Shown: positions 1-53,344 of the stretch, in pieces
Layout: the number at the start of each line of letters is the position of its first letter
How positions within the stretch are numbered: the first letter of the stretch is position 1
Virus record (IMG/VR): IMGVR_UViG_3300030329_003045
Coordinates: 1-53,344 of that record
DNA length: 53,344 bases
Reading direction: 5' to 3' (one strand)
Source: a virus
Taxonomy: Duplodnaviria > Caudoviricetes
The notes under the pieces: generated by a model
The model's input: only the letters and a program-made list of their open reading frames with translations
Databases searched by the model: none
What the model was told of the DNA's origin: nothing
Made by a program: the position numbers and the translations under genes

Positions 1-328
1 GTGATATATATATACCCACTTATACCAAACAGTCCCATAAAGAATTGCTGTGTATGCTTAATATATGCAGGATAAATACTAGTAAGACCAAATAGATACG
101 TGTTATCATAATTAAGCTATGATAGATGCAATGGATGTGTTATATGTGTGAAATTTGCCGTAATGTTACACATATATAATATTAAGTTGTAGTTCACTGA
201 TTATGAGCGAATAACATTACTAGGTGTGACTGACACTTAAACTAAACAGTCAGGCTATGAAAGTCGTGGATGGTATTAGAGCTACCAACATCATGTAAGT
301 CCATATGTTATAATAGTATTGAGGTTCT
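1..328. repeat. Imperfect terminal repeat, copy A (allele A of an assembly bubble)
   Basis: 1-77 is identical to 52993-53069 and 252-328 is identical to 53268-53344 (both exactly 77 bp); the sequence between is homologous but divergent. Confidence 0.95.
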
Positions 329-398
329 ATGTCCTGTCACGGGATACTTGATATGATGTATAATAAGGTTTGTGCGTTCCTACCAAAAATGCACAAAT
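100..398 (+). ncRNA. Unnamed multi-stem, pseudoknotted ncRNA
   Basis: Stems 137-150/169-182, 160-167/213-220 and 227-232/247-252 are preserved by compensatory or G-U changes in the second allele; further hairpins run to ~398; no ORF; boundaries approximate. Confidence 0.75.
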
Positions 399-403
399 TA
401 TTC

Positions 404-600
404 TTCGAGGTAGTATAAATGTAAGGAAAGTGAAGTGTTATGTAAAACACTATGTCAGTAGTAAGGTTGACATCTTGCTGACACAGGATTAAATGGTCAA
501 CAGCATAATTAAAAGCAAGTACTTACTATGTCTTTAAGACTTTGAAATAATACTCAGAGCTGAAATGCCTGCAATGTAGGTTTGAATCCTGCTCTCGTCA
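404..600 (+). ncRNA. tRNA-like RNA (GAA-centred loop) with ~130-nt structured insert in the D-loop
   Basis: Acceptor CGAGG 406-410/TCTCG 593-597, TA linker, D-stem GTAT 413-416/ATAC 550-553, loop CTGAAAT 560-566, T-arm GTAGG-TTTGAAT-CCTGC 576-592. Confidence 0.55.
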
Positions 601-15409: not shown

Positions 15410-18400
15410 CTAACAAATTTTTCCTCCTGATTCAATATCATGATACCTATCTCTTAAATCAGCAGGTTTTGTATGTCTATTAATAACCCTACCTTTGACC
15501 GTTGGAACGGACGTATTATCTGGGCCTTTCTCTAAAACAACTCTATTTCTAGTAGTATTTGTCCTTTTATCTAATTGCATATCCAATAAAGTAGATGAAT
15601 AGAATATATCTAAATATCTAGATAAGGATTTTACTGGATTAGCAAGTTCTCCTAAATTTTTATAATCAATACCAATAGTTTGTGAACTTTCCCATTCAGG
15701 AACATTAGGTTTCTTCTTGCCAGTAAAGGCAAGTTGAACTTGTTTCATCAATCTTTTAGCAAACCCAGCATCACCTCCATAATCAGTCTCAATAATTCTT
15801 TCATTATTTAAAGTCCAATTCAAAATAGTCTTCTGCAAATGTAAATCAGTTTTAAATGTAGGAATATATTGATTGTCTTTACCTATAGCATAACTCTCTA
15901 CTAATTGAGGTTGTAGTAAATATCTTAAAATCAAATCAACAGGATCAATATTTGTGTGTACTTGTGGGACCCATTTATCTAAGAAGTTCTTAATATCTAT
16001 ACCTTCTCTTAAAGCCTGCATCTCATAAATATCTTTACTTAAAACCCTATTAGTTAGAGACTCTTTTATTGCGCCTCTATACCCTGTACTTATTTTGAAT
16101 CTTAAGGCTCTTGCATCAGCTGTAAATTGTACCCAATTATCCATATGAGCGCTCGGAGACATAACCTCATCTCTGGTTACTTCAAATAAAGCTCTACTCC
16201 ATCTCATTTCATTTTCACTAAGATTAACCATTTTTTTAGGTCTAGTATCTATAATATAAGTCATCCCTTTATGTGTACGAATATTATCCCTTATATTACT
16301 CTTAGTATAATAACCTAAGAACTTAAGTTGATTATGCGATATATAATTCTCATCAGTTTTTCCGTGATTTAGATTACCTTCTTTACCTTCTTTATTAAGT
16401 TTGTTTATCTCAGTAACATCTACATCGCCTTTTATTGCATATATTGCAACCCTATCTCTCTTTGCTGCCTTTAAAACATTTTTAATTTTAATCTGACCAT
16501 TCTTCTTTCCAACAATAATTTGATTTTTAGGGTCTCTGATAACCATATCTCTAGCTAGCTGAACATCCATTATATCCATAGCTTGTTTTAAATTGGCTAA
16601 TCTATGTTGAAGTTTTTGTATCTTATTAGGATTTGCAAATGGTTCATTCATAAAATAATCAAATGAATTAATAACGTCATCGTGCTGTTTTTCGAGCAAG
16701 TTTCTTAATATACCATTATTCATTTGTTTCCTATACCTTTTTGGATCTGTCTGGCCAAAAGATTTTAAATTCAAAGCAAATTCATATTCTCCAGTAGCTG
16801 TTCTTCCTGTTAATATTTCAACAGGATCTTGTCCAAAGGCTCTAATAACTTCTACAAAATTCTCAATTCTATCAACAAAAATTCCAGCCTTTTGAAAATT
16901 CTTACCATTATCTAAACTTCTTAATCCTTCAAAATTAGTAGTAAACCAAGCTTTATTTTGATTTAAATCATAAATAGTTCTACCGCCTATAGACATAAAG
17001 AAAGGATTATTATCTGTTTTATCAGATAAAGCATCAATAGTAGGGACATTTTCAAATCTAAATCTTATTTTACCTAAAGTAACTGGTTCTCCAGTATATA
17101 TTTTTCTATATATCTGCTTTCTTGTAGCCTCATTTTTTACAAAATCCATATAATCTTTACCATAAAACATATCAACATACTCACTAAGCATCAAATCAGC
17201 TTCAGCTTTCTTACCTATGGTTCTATAGTAACTAATTCTATTCATCATTCTTTTACTTAAATATCTTGTAGGATTTAAAAAGAACTCAGACATCCTTCCA
17301 TATATATCTTTTATCTCTCTAGCTTCAGGATTTCTACTACCTGCTTCATCATATACGTCATTTTGGACCATATTTGCCTTTTTTAGCAACCTTACTACCT
17401 CAAAGAACATCTCCTTCTCTAATGTATTATTCTTTCCAAAATTAGGGTGATCTTTACCAAAAACGTTTACATCATCTACCGCATATTTATTAAATATATC
17501 GTCAGTTTCTCCTCTTTTCTTTAATTGCTGAGCTTTGTCTTTGTAATTTTTAGGGGTTCCAAAGAATAAAAAGTCCATTAAATCTGCCTGAGCTCTCATT
17601 ATTCTATGAATACCGCCATGAATATCTACAGAATTCTGCATAGTATCATAAAATTTACTTAACCATTTCCATTCAGGACTATCCAAGGACAATTTATCCT
17701 CATTAGAAAATTTCTTTAAAAGGTCCTTACCATCTAATTGCATTCCTAACTTATCAAGCCAAGATAATGCGTTCCTTATACCAACAACTTGACCTATAGC
17801 CATTTTTGCTTGAGATAATTTACTAGCATAACTGTGAAAACCAACATCAGTAGCTATTTCACCAGCTTTTCCACCATCTCCTATACCAAATATATTTATA
17901 TAATTTTCTTGACCAATAACATCTTGAACATCAAACATTCTGAAATCATCTTTCTTTCCATTCTGTCTAGCAAAAGCTTTTAATATTCCTTCTGGAAGTT
18001 TTTGATGCATATAAAAATGGTCACCATCATTATCACGTTGTAAAACAGTACGTAAATCATGCACATTTATTTCAGCTAAACCATTCATTTGTTTTAATAC
18101 TTTTCCTACTCTTAATATAACCTTATCATGTCCTAGAGCTGGTATAGCATGTCCTAACATACCAAAAGCTAACTTTAATTCTTGAGCATCTGTTATAGCC
18201 CTTTTTGTTAATTTTACTACTTTACCATTTTTTGTTATTGTATTTCCATCCATCAATCGAATAACATCAGAGTAATTTAATCCGTGTTTTTGTACCTTTT
18301 TATTAATCTCATTTAAAGTAACCTCAATACGTTTCTGCCTAGACTTGAAAGATTTAGAATCCATATTATAACCTTTTTTAAATAAATCACCCTCATATTT

Positions 18401-21400
18401 CTTACTACCAGTTGCACCATCCCAAGTCTCTATATCATGCCCTTTGTGCATTTTTATATGGTCATAAAATGGACTTTCATAAATAAACTTATTACCGTTC
18501 CATCTAACGATAACATCAATTCCATTATGGTCTCTAAATATAAAGGTCTCATCAACAATATTAGATACTCCATCATGTTTACCTAAAAGTCTTCTACTTT
18601 GATTTCTATTTATAGATGTCTCTCCATACTGTATAGTAGTTCTATTTTTATTAAATCTATCAATATGCCCTGCACGCATTTCTGTAAACTTAGCAAAAAT
18701 TGGAACAGCAAGATCAGAATTTACATTAGGAACTATAAAATTATCCTCTCCACCACGAACATGAGCTTGTTTTAAATCCTTATAATTCTGACTTCTCATT
18801 AATCTCTTTATTGCAGGCATTATTATAGGACTAGAAGGGCTAACACCGTACTCAAATACAAGCCTAGCTAAACCTTGATCTCCTAAGTTAAGTGGATTTC
18901 CTTCTGCTTCATTTATCCCATACAACCACTTAGTATAACCTCCAGGATCTTGTTCTATACCGCCCCATTCATTAGCTATTTGAAGAAACTTGTCTTGAAA
19001 TTTCATCCATTGCATTGCTTCTTTCATAACTGTTGGACTTTGAAAATCAAATATAGAAGGAGATATTACTCCTCCTTTAGCATTTTTAGATACAAATGAT
19101 ATGCCTATAGATTTAATAGGTATAATCATTCTATTTTGATCTTGAGCCATATGTAGTCTATCAAGACCTTTAGAAACATCGGTAGGTTTTAAATCTCTAT
19201 TAGTTATAGGTGTTTTACCAGTAAATGATTTAGCAGATTCAGAACCAATAATAATATCAGCTCCTTTAGGCATATATTGCGCTATATCTGGATGGTATAT
19301 TAGAAAACCTTTACCTAACATTTGATTATCTCCAGTAGCAAATATAATAGTTTTTGCACCATTAGGTTTATTTAAGAAATTATCAATATTTTCACCCTTA
19401 TGAGCCATAACAAGCCTCATAAAGTCTAAAGAAGCAAATTTAGCGCCATCAAATAATGAATTATCTAAGCTTTTTAAATTCTGTAAGTTTTCTTGATTTT
19501 GTAATAAAACACCTTGTAATATTTTATTCTGAACTTTATTTACATTTTTTGCAATCTGCGCATTTACATCGCTAATTTTTGACTCAATTTGTCTTTGAGT
19601 TATACCTTGAATATTTAATGGATGATTAATATCTCCCTTAACAGTTGACTCATCAAACACAACAGTGTCATGACCATCTTGTTTTAAAGCCTTTAAAGCA
19701 GCATCTCTAACCTTTTTATTGGGATGGCCCATAACACGTGCAAGTTTAGTTCCTGGAATATTTTCTGTAGATACTATCCAATTTAGAACTCTTTTACTCA
19801 TAGGTTGAGTAGTACCACCATCTGTTAGGTTTCCTCTTTTAAATATATTCATCTGTATTTTCTGAAGATTAGCTTTATCTCCAGCAGTCCAATCGCCTAG
19901 AAATTGATCAAACCCTTGTCTACCACCTTGAATATCAATATAAGGTAACATTAATTTTAGTTCAACTAAATGTCTAGCCCCAACATCTTCTGGTTTAGTC
20001 TTATCTCTTAATTGTCCAAATATATTCCTAAAGTTATCAAGCTCTTTATTTTTATTAGCATCTTTCAATCTTTTCTCAGTAGCTACAAACCAACTCTCAA
20101 AATCATTATTTAAATTCTCAATATTTTCTTTGGTTCTCGCAAATAAAACTCTATTTTTAGGTGATACTCTAACATAATAAAAGAAATCTTTAATATTTTC
20201 TTGCTTCAATAAAGAGGCAACTTCACTTTCAGATAACTCATAAGTCTCTGCTAATTTTCTTAATACCTCTTTATTAGCAGCAGATTCTCTTATAGAATTA
20301 TTTATAATCTTTTGAACTTCAACAGGATTTGATATTAACTGATCAAGACTTCCTGATCTTAATTTGCCTGCTATCTCAACATTAATACCATCGTCTAAAT
20401 AAATTACTTTTAATTTCTTATCACCAAAATAAGTTCTACCTGGATAAGTCACTGATGGAGTATCGTTATTAAATAAAGTTATAGCTCTTTTACCTTCACC
20501 ATAACCTATTATTTTAACTGTAGGTACAGATTGTTGATTCTCTATATAACTTAATATTTCTATTGCATGTCTCTCTTTGAACTGTCTATATAGTGCTACT
20601 CTTTCACTAGATGAAAGTGGTTGACCATTGCTATCGGTTCTCTGATTAATATGGTTAAGTATATAATCATTAAATGCTTTTACATCATCAGCTAATAAGG
20701 CTGCTTTGAACCCTTCATCTATTTTATTCTTTTTATCAACTAATCCGTACTCTCTTAAAACCTCAATAGGAGTCTTATGTCTTTCATGCATAGCCCTACC
20801 TTCATCTTGAGATTTTCTAATTAAAGACATTTCCTCATTTAATACATGGTCAGGATTATTTAATATAACTCTTTTATTAATTTCTTTATTTATTTCCTTA
20901 AATAATTCAACTGCCTCTCCAAATAATCCTCTTTCATTAACTTGTTCTATAACCTCAGATAACGATCTTTTTTGCTTATTAACGTCCTTAGTAAATAAAA
21001 CATTCCAATTATTTACAAGTTTATCCATAACAGCCTGAAAATCATTCTCTCCTAACCCATAACCTGCTTTACCCTCTAAAGCTAGATTTTCTATTTTTAC
21101 AATCAAATTATTTAGATGATTTAATCCTTGATATTCTCTTTTAAATATATCTGCAACTCTATTTTGTAGTGGCTCTAATATAGCTTCACGAACTCCCCAT
21201 CTATCTCCTTCTTGATCAAATTTATCCCTTTGTTCTTGAGTTAGGAGCTTCTTAATAGGATAAGTCCATTTAGATGTTTGTTTGCTAATATTACTCTTTA
21301 ATTCATTTAAAGTAATAATCATTTCATCAACATCTTTTTCAGTAGCGGTTCTATCTTTACCTTCAGCATTTGGTCTTTTAGCAGCTTTAGAAAAAGCATC

Positions 21401-24400
21401 TAATTCAGCAATTATAGATTCTATCTCCTTTATAGGATCTTTAACAGTTACCTCTTTTTCAGGATCTAATGAGTCTATAATATTGGTTATTTTAGCTTGA
21501 ATTGAGTTTAACTTAGCAGGAGCACCTCCATCAAGATTATATGCCTTTTCTAGTGCCGTTTTAGCCTTTCCCATAAGGTCCATAAGAGCATCATTACCTA
21601 AAAATTTATATACTCTCGCATAATCTTGTATATCAATACCTTCTGTAAGTAATGTTCCATCATCATGAACAGGTATTATATCAGTCTCTTTAACAGTATC
21701 TCCAAGAACATCTTTTAAAGATTTTCTACCTTTTAACATAAGTTGTATTTCTCCTTGAGAAAATCCTTCATCTAAAAGATATTGCTTTAAAGCTTCTTCT
21801 GATGGAATCTGAAACTTTCCATCTCTAAGAACACCTAATCTTTTACTTTGCGCATAATGAGCAGCTTTAAGGGCTCTTGAATCTAACCCTATATTATGAT
21901 ATATTCTATCTAAGTAAGCTTCACCTACTTTACCTTTAAAGTCAGCTTGAAATTCACGTGGCAATGCTTTAAATAAAGATATAAAAGAATCATTAGCAAC
22001 CTGAAGATCTGCTCTTTCAATCTTTCTATTAGGAGATTTTGTAGTTTGTCCTCCTAAATGTACTTTTCTTAAGTCAAATAGAGGCTTTAAAGTATGCAAT
22101 ATTAAGTCAGCTTCTTCTTTTACTTTACTTTCAGGAGTACCTTCTTTTGCGTCTCTAACATATTCTTCGATAACTCTTTTATATTCATTTATATCAGCAT
22201 GATACTTACCATCTATCATAAATATTTTATCAAGAAGTGTAGTTAAATCTTTATCTTTTACATTCTTTGATTTACCAGTAATAATATCAAACAATCTTTC
22301 ATTAGTAGCTACAGCCTTAGCTCCAGTATAAAACTTCATAAATTGATTACTATCAGGCATAATAAACTTACCTTTATTAGCAAAAGTTAATGAAAGTTCG
22401 CTCATATTTTTCTCTATAACTTCAGACACTCTAGCTTTTAACTGCTCAACATCCATATTATTTGCCTTAGCAATCCATTCCATAGTTCTTTCTGCCTTTA
22501 CTCCTGGCTGTATACGTGAAGCATCACCGTTGTTACGAAAAATATCTAAAACTCTATTTATATTATGTATCATGCCAAGATCAACACCATCTTCACCAAC
22601 AGATCTTGTTTCTGCATAAGTAATTTTACCATCTGAAGATACACTAATGTCAAATCCTAATTCATTTAATTCTGCAAACATCCTTTTATAAAGATTCATA
22701 GCTTTATTTAAAGGTTCTCCAGTCATTCTAATCATAGCATGAAACCATGCATCTGTACCTTTTTGACCTAAGGTCTGAATTTCCCCTGTACCCTTATCAA
22801 CACCTATAGATATTTCTCTAATATTGTTAGCAATTTTATTTATAGTTCCCTCAGATAGGAATAAAATACGGTCACTTAAAGATTTCGCATCTGGATTCTT
22901 TGTGATATTCATAATATCATACATATCAGCAAATTGTTGAACTAGTTTTAAATCAGGATTGTCAGCGCTATGCTTTCCAGTTGGATTTTTCTCTCCACCC
23001 TCTAAACCCTTATCAAAAGCGGTTAGTATTTTTTGACCTGTTTCAGAACCTGCTAGATGTTCACCTGTAGCAAATCCCTCTCCGTCCTTCCATTGCTTGA
23101 ATCTGAACAACATTTTTGCTCCATCGGCATCTACCCCTAGAATACGCATTGCCTCTGTATATGGCTTAAAATCAGCGAAATACTGCCTTTTATTCTTATG
23201 CCCCCATGCACCTCTACCTTTAACCATCATAAATGACATCATCATATGTGCACCAAGTTCTGAACTATCCATGTCACTCCAGGCATTTTTATCTAATACC
23301 CAAGGATTCATTACAAGAGTACCTGCAGCCATTCTTGGAAGAGACTTTCCTAAATCTGCTAAGTACTTTGGACCCCATTTACCAAGCATTTCACTAGAAA
23401 CTTGCTTATTTATCTTATTTAAAAGAACTTTAGTATGTTCAACATTCATTGTTCCGTTCTTTATTCTAGCTAATATATCATCAGCACCTTTATAAATTTC
23501 TTTTGTTTTACCTTTTCCTACAGTCCACCATGCTGTTCCTAGTTTATTTGAATTCCATACTGATCTTTTGCCTGAAGGAGATACCATTAATCTTAATAGG
23601 TTATTAACAACATCATCTCCATGTTCTGCTTGAATCTTACCATAATCTATATTTTTATATCTACCAAAATAAGCTTTAAATCCTGTAGTTAGATTATCAT
23701 TACCACCTCCAGGAAGAAGTCTAATTAAAGGAAAAGCTAAAGCCATTTTACCTGAATGGCTTAATGTCTCCATAGGGTCAAAATGTTCTCCATAAGCGTG
23801 AGATTTTACAGCACCAGAAATCAATCCATGAGCAGTCATCATAGCCATATCTTGAGTAGCCATACCTAGATATTTTGTTACACCACTTCTAACTCTACCA
23901 GGAGCAGCGCCACCTAACGCTCTTGCAGTCCACTCAGCAATATCATCTACATAATGTCCTGCAGCTAAATCATCAACCCATCTTCCAGCTAAATTAGTAG
24001 CATCTAGTTTAGTTAATTCAATTCCATGCTCTTTGAAAGCTCTAGAGATTGCACTTCCACCAGTACCTACTAAATTTTCTTTAGCCTCATCTAAAGCTCT
24101 ACCTTGGCTACGTAAATTCTTAATCCAACCAACGGTTAAATCATTTTTTGAAGTTTTTTGTATAGCAGCATAAACATCATCTCCAAACCCTTTAATTGCA
24201 TCATCTACAGATATACCTTTTGCTTTAGCAATTTCTTCTGCTTTTTCGATAATTCTATTAGCGGTTGGAGCGTCAAAGTTTTTAGTTATAGATTTTCTAG
24301 TTATATTATCAGCAACATCTTTAGCAGCTTTACCAACAAATTTATTCGCACCTAATCTAGTAACAGCTCTTCCAGCTCTAGCCATTTGACCAAATGCACC

Positions 24401-24703
24401 AAAGGGTAGAAATAACCCTAAACCTTCACCCATGATCATTCCAGCTCTCTCAGCGCCAGACTTCTCTTCCCAAGGAGTATCAGCATAAGGATTAATAAAA
24501 TCAGAAACTCCCCAAGTAACAGCAGAAGCTGCGCCCCAAAGAGTTGAACCTAGAAAGTCTAGTAAAGACCCAGAATCTCTCTCAATAGTATCAAAACTAA
24601 AAGCCCCTTCAGGAACATAACTGCCTGCATAGGGGTTAGTGTATAAATTAGGTCTTGTACTATTTGGAGAGGCTATATTATAGAAATCTCTTGATATTGC
24701 CAT
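15410..24703 (-). CDS. Giant virion protein, putative double-psi-beta-barrel RNA polymerase
   Basis: 3097 aa; LQRDNDGDHFY (DxDGD, nt 18020-18034) preceded by a HAIP..IL.V...GLAEI segment; upstream FDGA and GAKT...GKG motifs; located in the ejection-protein module. Confidence 0.65.
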   Translation of the reverse strand: MAISRDFYNIASPNSTRPNLYTNPYAGSYVPEGAFSFDTIERDSGSLLDFLGSTLWGAASAVTWGVSDFINPYADTPWEEKSGAERAGMIMGEGLGLFLPFGAFGQMARAGRAVTRLGANKFVGKAAKDVADNITRKSITKNFDAPTANRIIEKAEEIAKAKGISVDDAIKGFGDDVYAAIQKTSKNDLTVGWIKNLRSQGRALDEAKENLVGTGGSAISRAFKEHGIELTKLDATNLAGRWVDDLAAGHYVDDIAEWTARALGGAAPGRVRSGVTKYLGMATQDMAMMTAHGLISGAVKSHAYGEHFDPMETLSHSGKMALAFPLIRLLPGGGNDNLTTGFKAYFGRYKNIDYGKIQAEHGDDVVNNLLRLMVSPSGKRSVWNSNKLGTAWWTVGKGKTKEIYKGADDILARIKNGTMNVEHTKVLLNKINKQVSSEMLGKWGPKYLADLGKSLPRMAAGTLVMNPWVLDKNAWSDMDSSELGAHMMMSFMMVKGRGAWGHKNKRQYFADFKPYTEAMRILGVDADGAKMLFRFKQWKDGEGFATGEHLAGSETGQKILTAFDKGLEGGEKNPTGKHSADNPDLKLVQQFADMYDIMNITKNPDAKSLSDRILFLSEGTINKIANNIREISIGVDKGTGEIQTLGQKGTDAWFHAMIRMTGEPLNKAMNLYKRMFAELNELGFDISVSSDGKITYAETRSVGEDGVDLGMIHNINRVLDIFRNNGDASRIQPGVKAERTMEWIAKANNMDVEQLKARVSEVIEKNMSELSLTFANKGKFIMPDSNQFMKFYTGAKAVATNERLFDIITGKSKNVKDKDLTTLLDKIFMIDGKYHADINEYKRVIEEYVRDAKEGTPESKVKEEADLILHTLKPLFDLRKVHLGGQTTKSPNRKIERADLQVANDSFISLFKALPREFQADFKGKVGEAYLDRIYHNIGLDSRALKAAHYAQSKRLGVLRDGKFQIPSEEALKQYLLDEGFSQGEIQLMLKGRKSLKDVLGDTVKETDIIPVHDDGTLLTEGIDIQDYARVYKFLGNDALMDLMGKAKTALEKAYNLDGGAPAKLNSIQAKITNIIDSLDPEKEVTVKDPIKEIESIIAELDAFSKAAKRPNAEGKDRTATEKDVDEMIITLNELKSNISKQTSKWTYPIKKLLTQEQRDKFDQEGDRWGVREAILEPLQNRVADIFKREYQGLNHLNNLIVKIENLALEGKAGYGLGENDFQAVMDKLVNNWNVLFTKDVNKQKRSLSEVIEQVNERGLFGEAVELFKEINKEINKRVILNNPDHVLNEEMSLIRKSQDEGRAMHERHKTPIEVLREYGLVDKKNKIDEGFKAALLADDVKAFNDYILNHINQRTDSNGQPLSSSERVALYRQFKERHAIEILSYIENQQSVPTVKIIGYGEGKRAITLFNNDTPSVTYPGRTYFGDKKLKVIYLDDGINVEIAGKLRSGSLDQLISNPVEVQKIINNSIRESAANKEVLRKLAETYELSESEVASLLKQENIKDFFYYVRVSPKNRVLFARTKENIENLNNDFESWFVATEKRLKDANKNKELDNFRNIFGQLRDKTKPEDVGARHLVELKLMLPYIDIQGGRQGFDQFLGDWTAGDKANLQKIQMNIFKRGNLTDGGTTQPMSKRVLNWIVSTENIPGTKLARVMGHPNKKVRDAALKALKQDGHDTVVFDESTVKGDINHPLNIQGITQRQIESKISDVNAQIAKNVNKVQNKILQGVLLQNQENLQNLKSLDNSLFDGAKFASLDFMRLVMAHKGENIDNFLNKPNGAKTIIFATGDNQMLGKGFLIYHPDIAQYMPKGADIIIGSESAKSFTGKTPITNRDLKPTDVSKGLDRLHMAQDQNRMIIPIKSIGISFVSKNAKGGVISPSIFDFQSPTVMKEAMQWMKFQDKFLQIANEWGGIEQDPGGYTKWLYGINEAEGNPLNLGDQGLARLVFEYGVSPSSPIIMPAIKRLMRSQNYKDLKQAHVRGGEDNFIVPNVNSDLAVPIFAKFTEMRAGHIDRFNKNRTTIQYGETSINRNQSRRLLGKHDGVSNIVDETFIFRDHNGIDVIVRWNGNKFIYESPFYDHIKMHKGHDIETWDGATGSKKYEGDLFKKGYNMDSKSFKSRQKRIEVTLNEINKKVQKHGLNYSDVIRLMDGNTITKNGKVVKLTKRAITDAQELKLAFGMLGHAIPALGHDKVILRVGKVLKQMNGLAEINVHDLRTVLQRDNDGDHFYMHQKLPEGILKAFARQNGKKDDFRMFDVQDVIGQENYINIFGIGDGGKAGEIATDVGFHSYASKLSQAKMAIGQVVGIRNALSWLDKLGMQLDGKDLLKKFSNEDKLSLDSPEWKWLSKFYDTMQNSVDIHGGIHRIMRAQADLMDFLFFGTPKNYKDKAQQLKKRGETDDIFNKYAVDDVNVFGKDHPNFGKNNTLEKEMFFEVVRLLKKANMVQNDVYDEAGSRNPEAREIKDIYGRMSEFFLNPTRYLSKRMMNRISYYRTIGKKAEADLMLSEYVDMFYGKDYMDFVKNEATRKQIYRKIYTGEPVTLGKIRFRFENVPTIDALSDKTDNNPFFMSIGGRTIYDLNQNKAWFTTNFEGLRSLDNGKNFQKAGIFVDRIENFVEVIRAFGQDPVEILTGRTATGEYEFALNLKSFGQTDPKRYRKQMNNGILRNLLEKQHDDVINSFDYFMNEPFANPNKIQKLQHRLANLKQAMDIMDVQLARDMVIRDPKNQIIVGKKNGQIKIKNVLKAAKRDRVAIYAIKGDVDVTEINKLNKEGKEGNLNHGKTDENYISHNQLKFLGYYTKSNIRDNIRTHKGMTYIIDTRPKKMVNLSENEMRWSRALFEVTRDEVMSPSAHMDNWVQFTADARALRFKISTGYRGAIKESLTNRVLSKDIYEMQALREGIDIKNFLDKWVPQVHTNIDPVDLILRYLLQPQLVESYAIGKDNQYIPTFKTDLHLQKTILNWTLNNERIIETDYGGDAGFAKRLMKQVQLAFTGKKKPNVPEWESSQTIGIDYKNLGELANPVKSLSRYLDIFYSSTLLDMQLDKRTNTTRNRVVLEKGPDNTSVPTVKGRVINRHTKPADLRDRYHDIESGGKIC

Positions 24704-52992: not shown

Positions 52993-53344
52993 GTGATATA
53001 TATATACCCACTTATACCAAACAGTCCCATAAAGAATTGCTGTGTATGCTTAATATATGCAGGATAAATGACTATGCTATTTATATAGCACAGAGTAATA
53101 ACCTAAGAACGATAGGCGTTATCATAATTAAGCTATGATAGATACAATGGACGTATTGTGTATGTGTTACAAAGTGTAATGCCGCATGTATATGATGCTA
53201 GATTGTAGTAAGCCGAATTAGCGATAGAGGCATTACTAGGTGTAACTGACACTGAAGATAAACAGTTAGGCTATGAAAGTCGTGGATGGTATTAGAGCTA
53301 CCAACATCATGTAAGTCCATATGTTATAATAGTATTGAGGTTCT
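52993..53344. repeat. Imperfect terminal repeat, copy B (allele B of the locus at 1-328)
   Basis: 77-bp exact flanks; inner region diverged, with an extra TGCTAT-TTAT-ATAGCA hairpin. Confidence 0.95.

Follow-up and report, generated by a model that had tools for sequence, protein, structure and literature searches.

A candidate family of two-domain structured RNAs at the head of an RNA-gene cluster in uncultured marine phages

The + strand of the phage record IMGVR_UViG_3300030329_003045 (Caudoviricetes; 53,344 bases, analysed at full length and referred to below as the window) carries, at positions 100-398, a non-coding fold of two domains that selection maintains: the 3′ core is fixed, and the 5′ pseudoknot module can be swapped. 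This structured RNA is the first element of the + strand (replication/early) arm of the genome and lies 3′ of a conserved 30-nucleotide (nt) site. Our favoured interpretation, which we hold to be probable but well short of certain, is a discrete non-coding RNA (ncRNA) of an uncatalogued family, stable and acting in trans, that comes from an early RNA-gene cluster. An initial annotation made from the sequence alone had placed an unnamed pseudoknotted RNA here, supported by covariation between two alleles at the contig ends, and every string quoted in it was recovered at its position.

The record represents a whole phage genome with an estimated completeness of 99%. Genes for the small and large terminase subunits (terS, terL), portal and head proteins occupy the - strand at ~12.6-52 kb, and those for a primase-helicase and an Erf-type recombinase the + strand at 4-12 kb. 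Bases 1-328 are repeated at 52993-53344 with 81% identity. The two end copies are identical over 1-77, after which the second copy (allele B) has a 24-base insertion. Positions 95-328 are free of insertions and deletions, and adding 53016 to a coordinate of the first copy (allele A) gives that in allele B. The copies are near-identical at 100-135 and 216-328 and strongly divergent at 136-215, where the two co-occurring strains differ by ~40%. Allele B of the structured RNA spans 53111-53344 (+) and is truncated where the contig ends, at the counterpart of position 328; the covariance model described below matches it with 119 bits, flagged as cut at the 3′ end. A complete B-type RNA, followed by the same downstream open reading frame (ORF) as in the window, is present on the independent 5-kb contig L005 from elsewhere, whose small terminase shares 99% protein identity with that of the window phage, which makes allele B a genuine strain variant. 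The record is a closed genome whose assembly continued into a second strain, and its ends are two strain alleles of one locus.

The two alleles were used as a test of the proposed pairs. The structure was written for allele A (helices P1, P2a and P2b, the loop-to-downstream pairing, and P3-P6) and then scored in allele B. Of 54 scorable pairs 14 are changed between the alleles, and all 14 remain paired with none broken. Substitutions at paired sites are transitions in 17 of 17 cases, compared with 11 of 28 at unpaired sites. Within 133-220, substitutions occur at 14 of 50 paired and 23 of 38 unpaired sites (Fisher p = 0.004). When these 14 paired-site substitutions were randomised to any base, all pairs were kept in 2 of 200,000 trials, and with transitions only in 1,591 of 200,000. 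The fold of 95-400 gave a z-score of -2.62 against shuffled sequences, with one of 100 shuffles equally stable. Many of the kept pairs are G-U and would be C-A on the opposite strand, which identifies the + strand as the RNA; this is the strand initially assigned, and all neighbouring genes share it. The non-coding reading is likewise borne out by the absence of any ORF of at least 30 amino acids (aa) on either strand within 96-336. The region combines compensatory change beyond that of controls with the lack of a conserved ORF, the generic signature of a structured ncRNA.

The 5′ domain (+ strand) comprises the hairpin P1 (103-110/118-125, loop AUUAAGC), the long hairpin P2 (127-191), which is built from P2a (127-132/186-191), P2b (137-150/169-182) and an 18-nt loop (151-168), and a pairing between this loop and a segment downstream (160-167 with 213-220). 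In the four sequences with the A/B architecture, P1, P2a, P2b and the pseudoknot together are paired in 146 of 146 alignment cells, compared with 20-54% in controls with slid partners. P1 is paired in all four and shows a single change, C-G to U-G in L088. P2 is paired in 100% of its cells, and the 14-bp stem P2b, initially described as absorbing nine substitutions without loss of pairing between the alleles, is fully paired in all four sequences that have it. One-sided change through G-U affects two pairs in P2a and eight in P2b, and one P2b pair is changed on both sides. Shuffling the alignment columns of this domain left 98% of cells paired and has little power, because the stem varies by wobble-compatible transitions only.

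The loop-to-downstream pairing was found in three compensated forms. GTAATGTT/AACATTAC occurs in allele A, L088 and L081 (in L081 as the 3′ strand only) and is replaced through two U-A to C-G changes by GTAATGCC/GGCATTAC in allele B and L005; these are the two compensatory pairs first noticed between the alleles. The 5′ domain of L016 has a very different sequence, yet it forms a long composite hairpin with a 14-nt loop that contains GTGATGTT, and its complement AACATCAC constitutes the eight bases preceding the 3′ domain. Nowhere in the window does the P2 loop have a longer + strand complement than 212-220, and a search of the phage genome for trans targets of the loops and of the invariant segment gave nothing beyond chance except this partner. 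Another candidate contact, a kissing pair between the loops of P1 and the upstream hairpin P0 (GCUUAAU/AUUAAGC), was rejected, since the two loops are complementary but do not vary and better complements exist in the genome. Strains exchange the 5′ domain as a module: an A-type 5′ domain is joined to two 3′ types (window and L088), and the 3′ type of the window (type I) is joined to 5′ types A and B (window and L005).

The covariation between 160-167 and 213-220 fits intramolecular and intermolecular pairing equally well. An intermolecular pairing would account for the hypervariable 5′ domain if the RNA formed head-to-tail oligomers or gave rise to a processed antisense hairpin of the c4 type, and it would suit both the swapping of the domain as a module and the joint change of loop and target in three forms amid almost identical flanks. 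There are precedents for intermolecular specificity of this kind in the loop pairings of the phi29 pRNA, GOLLD and ROOL, through which copies join into oligomers, and in the heteroimmunity of phages P1 and P7 set by c4. The c4 antisense RNA of P1/P7 (~77 nt) targets the ribosome-binding region of icd/ant through loops complementary to a downstream site on the same transcript, and compensating differences between phages set its specificity. The RNA described here likewise has a loop complementary to a site further down the transcript that is compensated between relatives, but its target 213-220 lies inside a folded RNA, 420 nt upstream of the first ORF bearing a ribosome-binding site (at 640), and at no ribosome-binding site or ORF start; no integrase or repressor turned up, none having been searched for, and lysogeny or immunity genes were not identified. 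In the phi29 pRNA, which acts at the packaging motor and is encoded at the genome end, a covarying loop-loop "pseudoknot" proved to be intermolecular and builds a ring. The covarying loop pairing of a phage RNA is common to both, whereas the window phage has terminase-type packaging, and neither pRNA nor c4 is matched in Rfam. Moreover, an intramolecular H-type pseudoknot is by our estimate sterically plausible, and the pairing is absent in L083. We therefore regard an intermolecular pairing as distinctly unlikely, although a kissing loop of GOLLD that had been predicted by covariation was later proved intermolecular (10.1101/2024.12.08.627333). A more specific and equally doubtful proposal is that the 5′ domain is a strain-specific recognition module working through intermolecular 8-bp pairing, either in a multimer that accompanies the GOLLD nanocage or in a lock-and-key system of exclusion or immunity by which co-infecting strains are told apart. 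If true, this would explain the divergence of 136-215 amid near-identical flanks, and the pairing would offer a compact natural case of programmable RNA-RNA recognition in phages.

The 3′ domain (221-398) was analysed with a covariance model (R1) built from four near-identical sequences with the written structure, to which all eight versions described below were then aligned. Standard pairs make up 96.7% of 361 cells, compared with a shuffled mean of 87.9% and with 30-44% when partners were slid by 1-3 columns. Fifteen of 50 pairs are changed on both sides (shuffled mean 7.9), and 0 of 500 shuffles were as good. An unguided RNAalifold prediction returned the same helices (52 pairs, 15 compensated), and single-sequence folds of five versions, made without an alignment, have the same architecture. 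The covariation first seen between two alleles thus persists in the eight-sequence alignment, where it is concentrated in P3, P5a, P5b, P5c and P6.

Hairpin P3 (223-256, +) consists of 227-232/247-252 with a 3-bp extension (223-225/254-256) and has 6-9 bp and an A-rich 14-nt loop. Three of its six core pairs are changed on both sides: the change of TGACTG/CAGTCA to TAACTG/CAGTTA, already reported from the alleles, is joined by ATGCTG/CAGCAT in L083. The extension came from RNAalifold and is kept in six of eight sequences. P4 (259-301, +) is an irregular 12-bp hairpin (259-260/300-301, 265-269/291-295 and 271-275/283-287) with the 7-nt loop NUAGANC. It is 100% paired in all eight sequences, 11 of its 12 pairs never vary, and segment 283-304 is identical across all versions. 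The sole change is G269A opposite U291, from G-U to A-U. Because residue 269 is A in five of eight sequences and TCCAT does not change, the helix GTGGA/TCCAT of the initial annotation fails, and CGTGR(265-269)/TCATG(291-295) takes its place. The pairing TGGTA/TACCA suggested alongside it is compatible with all sequences but is invariant and gives no covariation information. P5 (306-365, +) is a three-tier hairpin composed of P5a (306-312/359-365), P5b (316-323/347-354) and P5c (330-336/340-346), in which 10 of 22 pairs are changed on both sides and the sequences of P5a and P5b diverge freely with pairing kept. P5b corresponds to the proposed helix GTATTGAG/CTTGATAT and has four pairs changed on both sides. 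The possible second pseudoknot ACATCAT/ATGATGT did not hold up, as its 5′ strand never varies and coincides in part with helix P4b, it uses bases already paired in P4b and P5b, and its 3′ partner decays, as read by eye, to five and four pairs in L083 and L088. P6 (369-405, +) is the terminal hairpin of 10 bp (369-378/388-397) with a 9-nt loop and a U-rich tract at 398-405; two of its pairs are changed on both sides and one on one side, and U-rich tails follow it in all versions. P6 and this tract may form a weak intrinsic terminator or a 3′ stabiliser. A tertiary pair UAGG(221-224)/CCUA(379-382) was discarded, since by eye it is not kept in L088 or L083.

The invariant P4 block could also be taken for a protein-binding DNA site, and the RNA lies in the divergent region between the packaging and replication arms, ~1.5 kb from terS, where assemblies often break. 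These features would suit a DNA-level element such as a replication origin, a divergent promoter region or, next to the small terminase gene, a packaging site. Such an element is very improbable in our judgement, as all 17 paired-site substitutions keep pairing on the + strand and would leave C-A on the other strand, mismatched in a cruciform. The eight one-sided wobble pairs of P2b, the free divergence of P5a and P5b and the presence of a contig covering the RNA in an RNA library speak against it as well.

The initial annotation set the RNA at 100-398, but the element runs on to ~405, where similarity among the versions ends right after P6 and its U-rich tail, and it may start near 44. A hairpin of 9 bp, P0 (48-56/62-70, loop CUUAA; 48-70, +), lies within a conserved 34-nt block (44-77) that is identical in both window alleles, L017, L012 and L088. 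In L005 a lone one-sided change, G52A, turns a G-U pair of P0 into A-U and gives weak support to the helix. In L005 and L017 the block is preceded by the terminator-like hairpin of an inserted unit, which suggests that the RNA may start at or just before P0. By eye, the block itself holds no acceptable hexamers for a sigma-70 promoter. From the sequence comparison we place the RNA at about 44/95 to ~405 on the + strand, with a predicted length of ~300-350 nt.

Further upstream, the conserved "anchor" site of ~30 nt (1-30, +; second copy at 52993-53022) consists of a TA-repeat followed by ACCNACNTATACC. With up to three mismatches, its 17-base core (10-26) was found in 39 of 77 related loci, once per locus except in L027, and in the window only in these two places; it always heads the + strand arm. 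The anchor may serve as a promoter or a terminus, or be a unique site of some other kind; its position is upstream of the RNA, to which it belongs only putatively.

Members of the family were collected using the small terminase as a handle, which gave 75 related loci. Only four of these had a blastn match to the RNA (L005, L016 and fragments in L012 and L017); L081, L083, L087 and L088/L089 came from scanning for the pattern of the invariant block. After removal of duplicates (L082 and L084 equal L005, and L086 equals L016), the family contains eight distinct sequences: the two window alleles and six versions from other marine contigs (L005, L016, L081, L083, L087 and L088). L081 and L087 are incomplete at the 5′ end and window allele B at the 3′ end. 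No match to 1-2000 was found by blastn among 50,697 GenBank phage records, and an exact 30-mer from the window had 0 matches in viral contigs. A 17-mer of the invariant block matched 16 loci in viral contigs, of which the 12 new ones are one unrelated coding region; a 19-mer gave three unrelated Acidobacteriota matches in genome contigs and seven loci in metagenome contigs, two of them unrelated (L085 and L090). Approximate matching of the block with up to four errors over 827 kb of collected loci revealed no further copy. Model R1, applied to the window and 49 of 105 loci (637,613 bases), returned only the eight known copies and one match at E = 0.38, which was excluded before counting, and it had no match in L106 or L107. 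Judging from these searches, the RNA family appears small and confined to one clade of uncultured marine phages.

Comparison with catalogued RNAs agreed with the initial view that the RNA cannot be assigned to a known family. A cmscan search of 100-398 against Rfam 15 (4227 families) returned nothing at E values up to 10, and the two most divergent versions (L083 and L016) gave only chance-level snoRNA and miRNA matches far below gathering scores. Specifically, there was no match to the Rfam 15 models of ROOL, OLE, raiA, 6S, transfer-messenger RNA (tmRNA), RNase P, T-box, riboswitches, C4 or pRNA. We found no published description in the accessible parts of the literature on GOLLD, phage transfer RNAs (tRNAs) and covariation-mined phage or metagenome RNAs. 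ROOL RNAs are described in PMC5737381 as large, folded and phage-encoded, with an unknown function and a location near tRNAs; compared with ROOL (RF03087) and the unnamed RNAs of phage tRNA islands, the RNA described here is much smaller, matches no model and occurs in one marine clade. A 2023 covariation survey of IMG/VR contigs listed 8,495 unnamed csRNA candidates of 29-151 nt, none as long as 300 nt according to its text (PMC10690425), and a hairpin of this RNA may be among them.

Parts of 1-2000 are contained in 18 marine or seawater sequencing runs, nine of which are recorded as RNA. Contigs of four marine metatranscriptome runs from four studies (X1, X2, X5 and X6) were compared with this region. 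In the rRNA-depleted run X6, a 543-nt contig with a word depth of 85.5 covers 226-402 with 11 differences, and has a B-like pseudoknot strand before this segment and a tRNA-Met-like sequence after it. Contigs over GOLLD (1179-1828) were present in all four runs, with depths of 3.9 and 4.5 in X6. In X1, X2 and X5 contigs fell only on 1179-1828 and none on 1-1178, which is uninformative on expression.

The structured RNA heads a cluster that contains a tRNA or tRNA remnant, a 65-aa ORF (ORF65), a mini tmRNA-like RNA, a UAA-suppressor tRNA and GOLLD. What directly follows P6 differs between versions: the ribosome-binding site of ORF65 in L081, L083 and L087; after ~12 nt, a tRNA-Met in L016 and a tRNA-like sequence in L088; and ~200 nt of other sequence in the window and L005. 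Because a tRNA begins within a dozen bases in three versions (L016, L088 and the X6 contig) and no promoter fits between, co-transcription is probable. According to our favoured interpretation, the RNA would share a transcript with the tRNA and the other RNA genes downstream. The P6 hairpin or terminator would free it as a stable RNA, together with tRNA 5′ processing in versions with a tRNA ~12 nt on. It would then act in trans as a folded RNA, in which P4 is the putative surface of contact with a partner protein or RNA and the variable pseudoknot domain a presumed strain-specific module.

The RNA comes first after the conserved upstream site and shares its strand with every gene downstream. 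It could instead be a cis-acting leader of the early unit, which senses a ligand, a protein or tRNA or works as a put-type antiterminator on RNA polymerase. P6 and its U-tract would then be a switchable terminator gating ORF65, the tRNAs, GOLLD and the replication genes. The position of a hairpin with a U-rich tail directly before a ribosome-binding site in L081, L083 and L087 is consistent with this, and a competing helix overlapping the pseudoknot strand (79-85/217-223) would suit a switch. We nevertheless consider a leader unlikely, since a strong regulated terminator would silence the tRNA that begins ~12 nt past P6 in L016, L088 and the X6 contig, and related phages run the ORF65-GOLLD unit without the RNA. 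In addition, no riboswitch, T-box or leader family was matched, and no alternative antiterminator pairing of P6 was seen.

GOLLD (RF02032) is the nearest analogue of the discrete trans-acting RNA that we favour, being phage-encoded, located beside tRNA genes in the same cluster and composed of multiple hairpins with a conserved 3′ and a variable 5′ part. In contrast, the RNA is ~300 nt long compared with roughly 720 nt for GOLLD here, and there is no sequence or structure match; neither 100-398 nor the L083 and L016 versions scored at least 150 bits with RF02032. The GOLLD match in the window is at 1467-1882 (+, 168.4 bits). The ~300 nt directly upstream of it (1165-1466), which start ~20 nt past the suppressor tRNA and 770 nt downstream of the structured RNA, are highly conserved and covarying in five loci, and the whole GOLLD probably spans 1165-1882 with 1165-1466 as its 5′ region. 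GOLLD was also detected in all five RNA-bearing loci with enough downstream sequence: the window, L083 (167.3 bits), L087 (164.1 bits), L081 (149.7 bits) and L016, where it is cut by the contig end. L005 and L088 were left out of this count, as its presence there cannot be told.

This co-occurrence raises the question of whether the RNA is a detached GOLLD 5′ domain, with the intervening 0.6-1.1 kb as the variable GOLLD linker. According to Kretsch et al. (10.1101/2024.12.08.627333), GOLLD is made up of a 5′ region of lower conservation, a variable linker in which tRNAs can occur and a conserved 3′ region. By that description 1165-1466, separately conserved and covarying directly before the Rfam match, is the natural GOLLD 5′ region and 100-398 is not. 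A conserved protein-coding ORF with a Shine-Dalgarno sequence and tRNA genes lie between the two, and the same GOLLD subtype occurs without the RNA in L009/L107 and L106. The identification of the RNA with the GOLLD 5′ domain was accordingly rejected, and we find it barely credible.

Several observations weigh against a discrete two-domain ncRNA. In the 3′ domain, whose alignment was fitted to the model, the eight sequences amount to no more than about four independent lineages, and the P5c and P6 variants common to L016, L083 and L088 each represent a single event. No covariation is seen in P4, which is presumed to be the functional core, and its conservation could also operate at the DNA or protein level. 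The 5′ domain of L083 is different again, and by eye no equivalent pseudoknot pairing was found in it. The competing helix 79-85/217-223 has 7 bp in allele A, is present in the minimum-energy fold and, with shifted register, retains by eye 6, 6 and 4 bp in allele B, L088 and L005, respectively. A scan of 1-2000 found no sigma-70-like promoter on the + strand, all nine promoter-like sites being on the - strand, and a terminator scan of the same region made 0 calls, the loop of P6 exceeding the limit of that scan. The GOLLD cassettes of L009/L107 and L106 show that the RNA is dispensable for that cluster. Finally, the metatranscriptome contigs do not reveal the ends, the strand or the level of a transcript, and DNA can be present in an RNA library, so that they establish presence in such a library only.

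Of the remaining cluster members, ORF65 (640-837, +) has a strong Shine-Dalgarno sequence and is conserved as a protein in L016, L009, L006 and others. It has a basic C-terminus with the sequence RGARFKVIS kept in L016, belongs to no PHROG family, and its conservation next to GOLLD and the mini tmRNA-like RNA extends to loci that lack the ~300-nt RNA. The mini tmRNA-like RNA (845-925, +; 81 nt) resembles the tRNA-like domain of tmRNA with 45.4 bits, compared with a gathering score of 47, and its homologues in L009 (5170-5251, -) and L083 (967-1047, +) score 59.1 and 53.2 bits. Its match to the tmRNA model is confined to both ends of that model and lacks the mRNA-like part, and ARAGORN called it neither a tRNA nor a tmRNA. 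The 95-nt suppressor tRNA (1050-1144, +) has the anticodon UUA, which reads the stop codon UAA, and is also present in L016 (648-737, -). The long genes of the phage are open under the standard bacterial code, which leaves the use of such a tRNA unexplained. At 560-600 (+), a T-arm-like sequence GTAGGTTTGAATCCTGC is followed by an acceptor-like 3′ strand; it was called by neither ARAGORN nor Rfam and may be what is left of the tRNA found after the RNA in L016 and L088. In six other related phages, a scan at gathering thresholds detected neither the RNA nor GOLLD.

Folded phage RNAs found beside tRNA genes, such as GOLLD and ROOL, are among the largest RNAs of unexplained function, and the present case adds a second, independent structured RNA family to one cassette with GOLLD, a mini tmRNA-like RNA and a suppressor tRNA. 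At ~300 nt it is small enough for chemical probing, cryo-electron microscopy and synthesis. Its natural domain-swap variants mark exchangeable and fixed parts, and the invariant 43-nt P4 hairpin is an evident bait for a partner search. If none of these prospects holds, it would be one more unnamed phage RNA with a narrow distribution.

Outside the cluster, the structural arm of the window contains a 3097-aa ORF (15410-24703, -) without a PHROG match, as are the adjoining ORFs of 909 and 791 aa; a 466-aa ORF likewise has no PHROGs family. The slot after the conserved upstream site is occupied by 12 unrelated sequence clusters among 33 loci. In the largest group, L037 (5164-5863, -) and 14 similar loci, ~960 nt follow the conserved site without a + strand ORF of at least 35 aa, and L037, the only member scanned, has no Rfam match at the gathering threshold; in this group the slot may hold a further unnamed RNA. 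A conserved element of ~65 nt, CTATGAGATGGGC...GGTCTGTCTCAT, was observed after tRNA-Met in L016 (~1270-1360, -), L009 and L106, and in L009, L106 and L017 a Cys-rich ORF of 43 aa and a terminator-like hairpin come after it.

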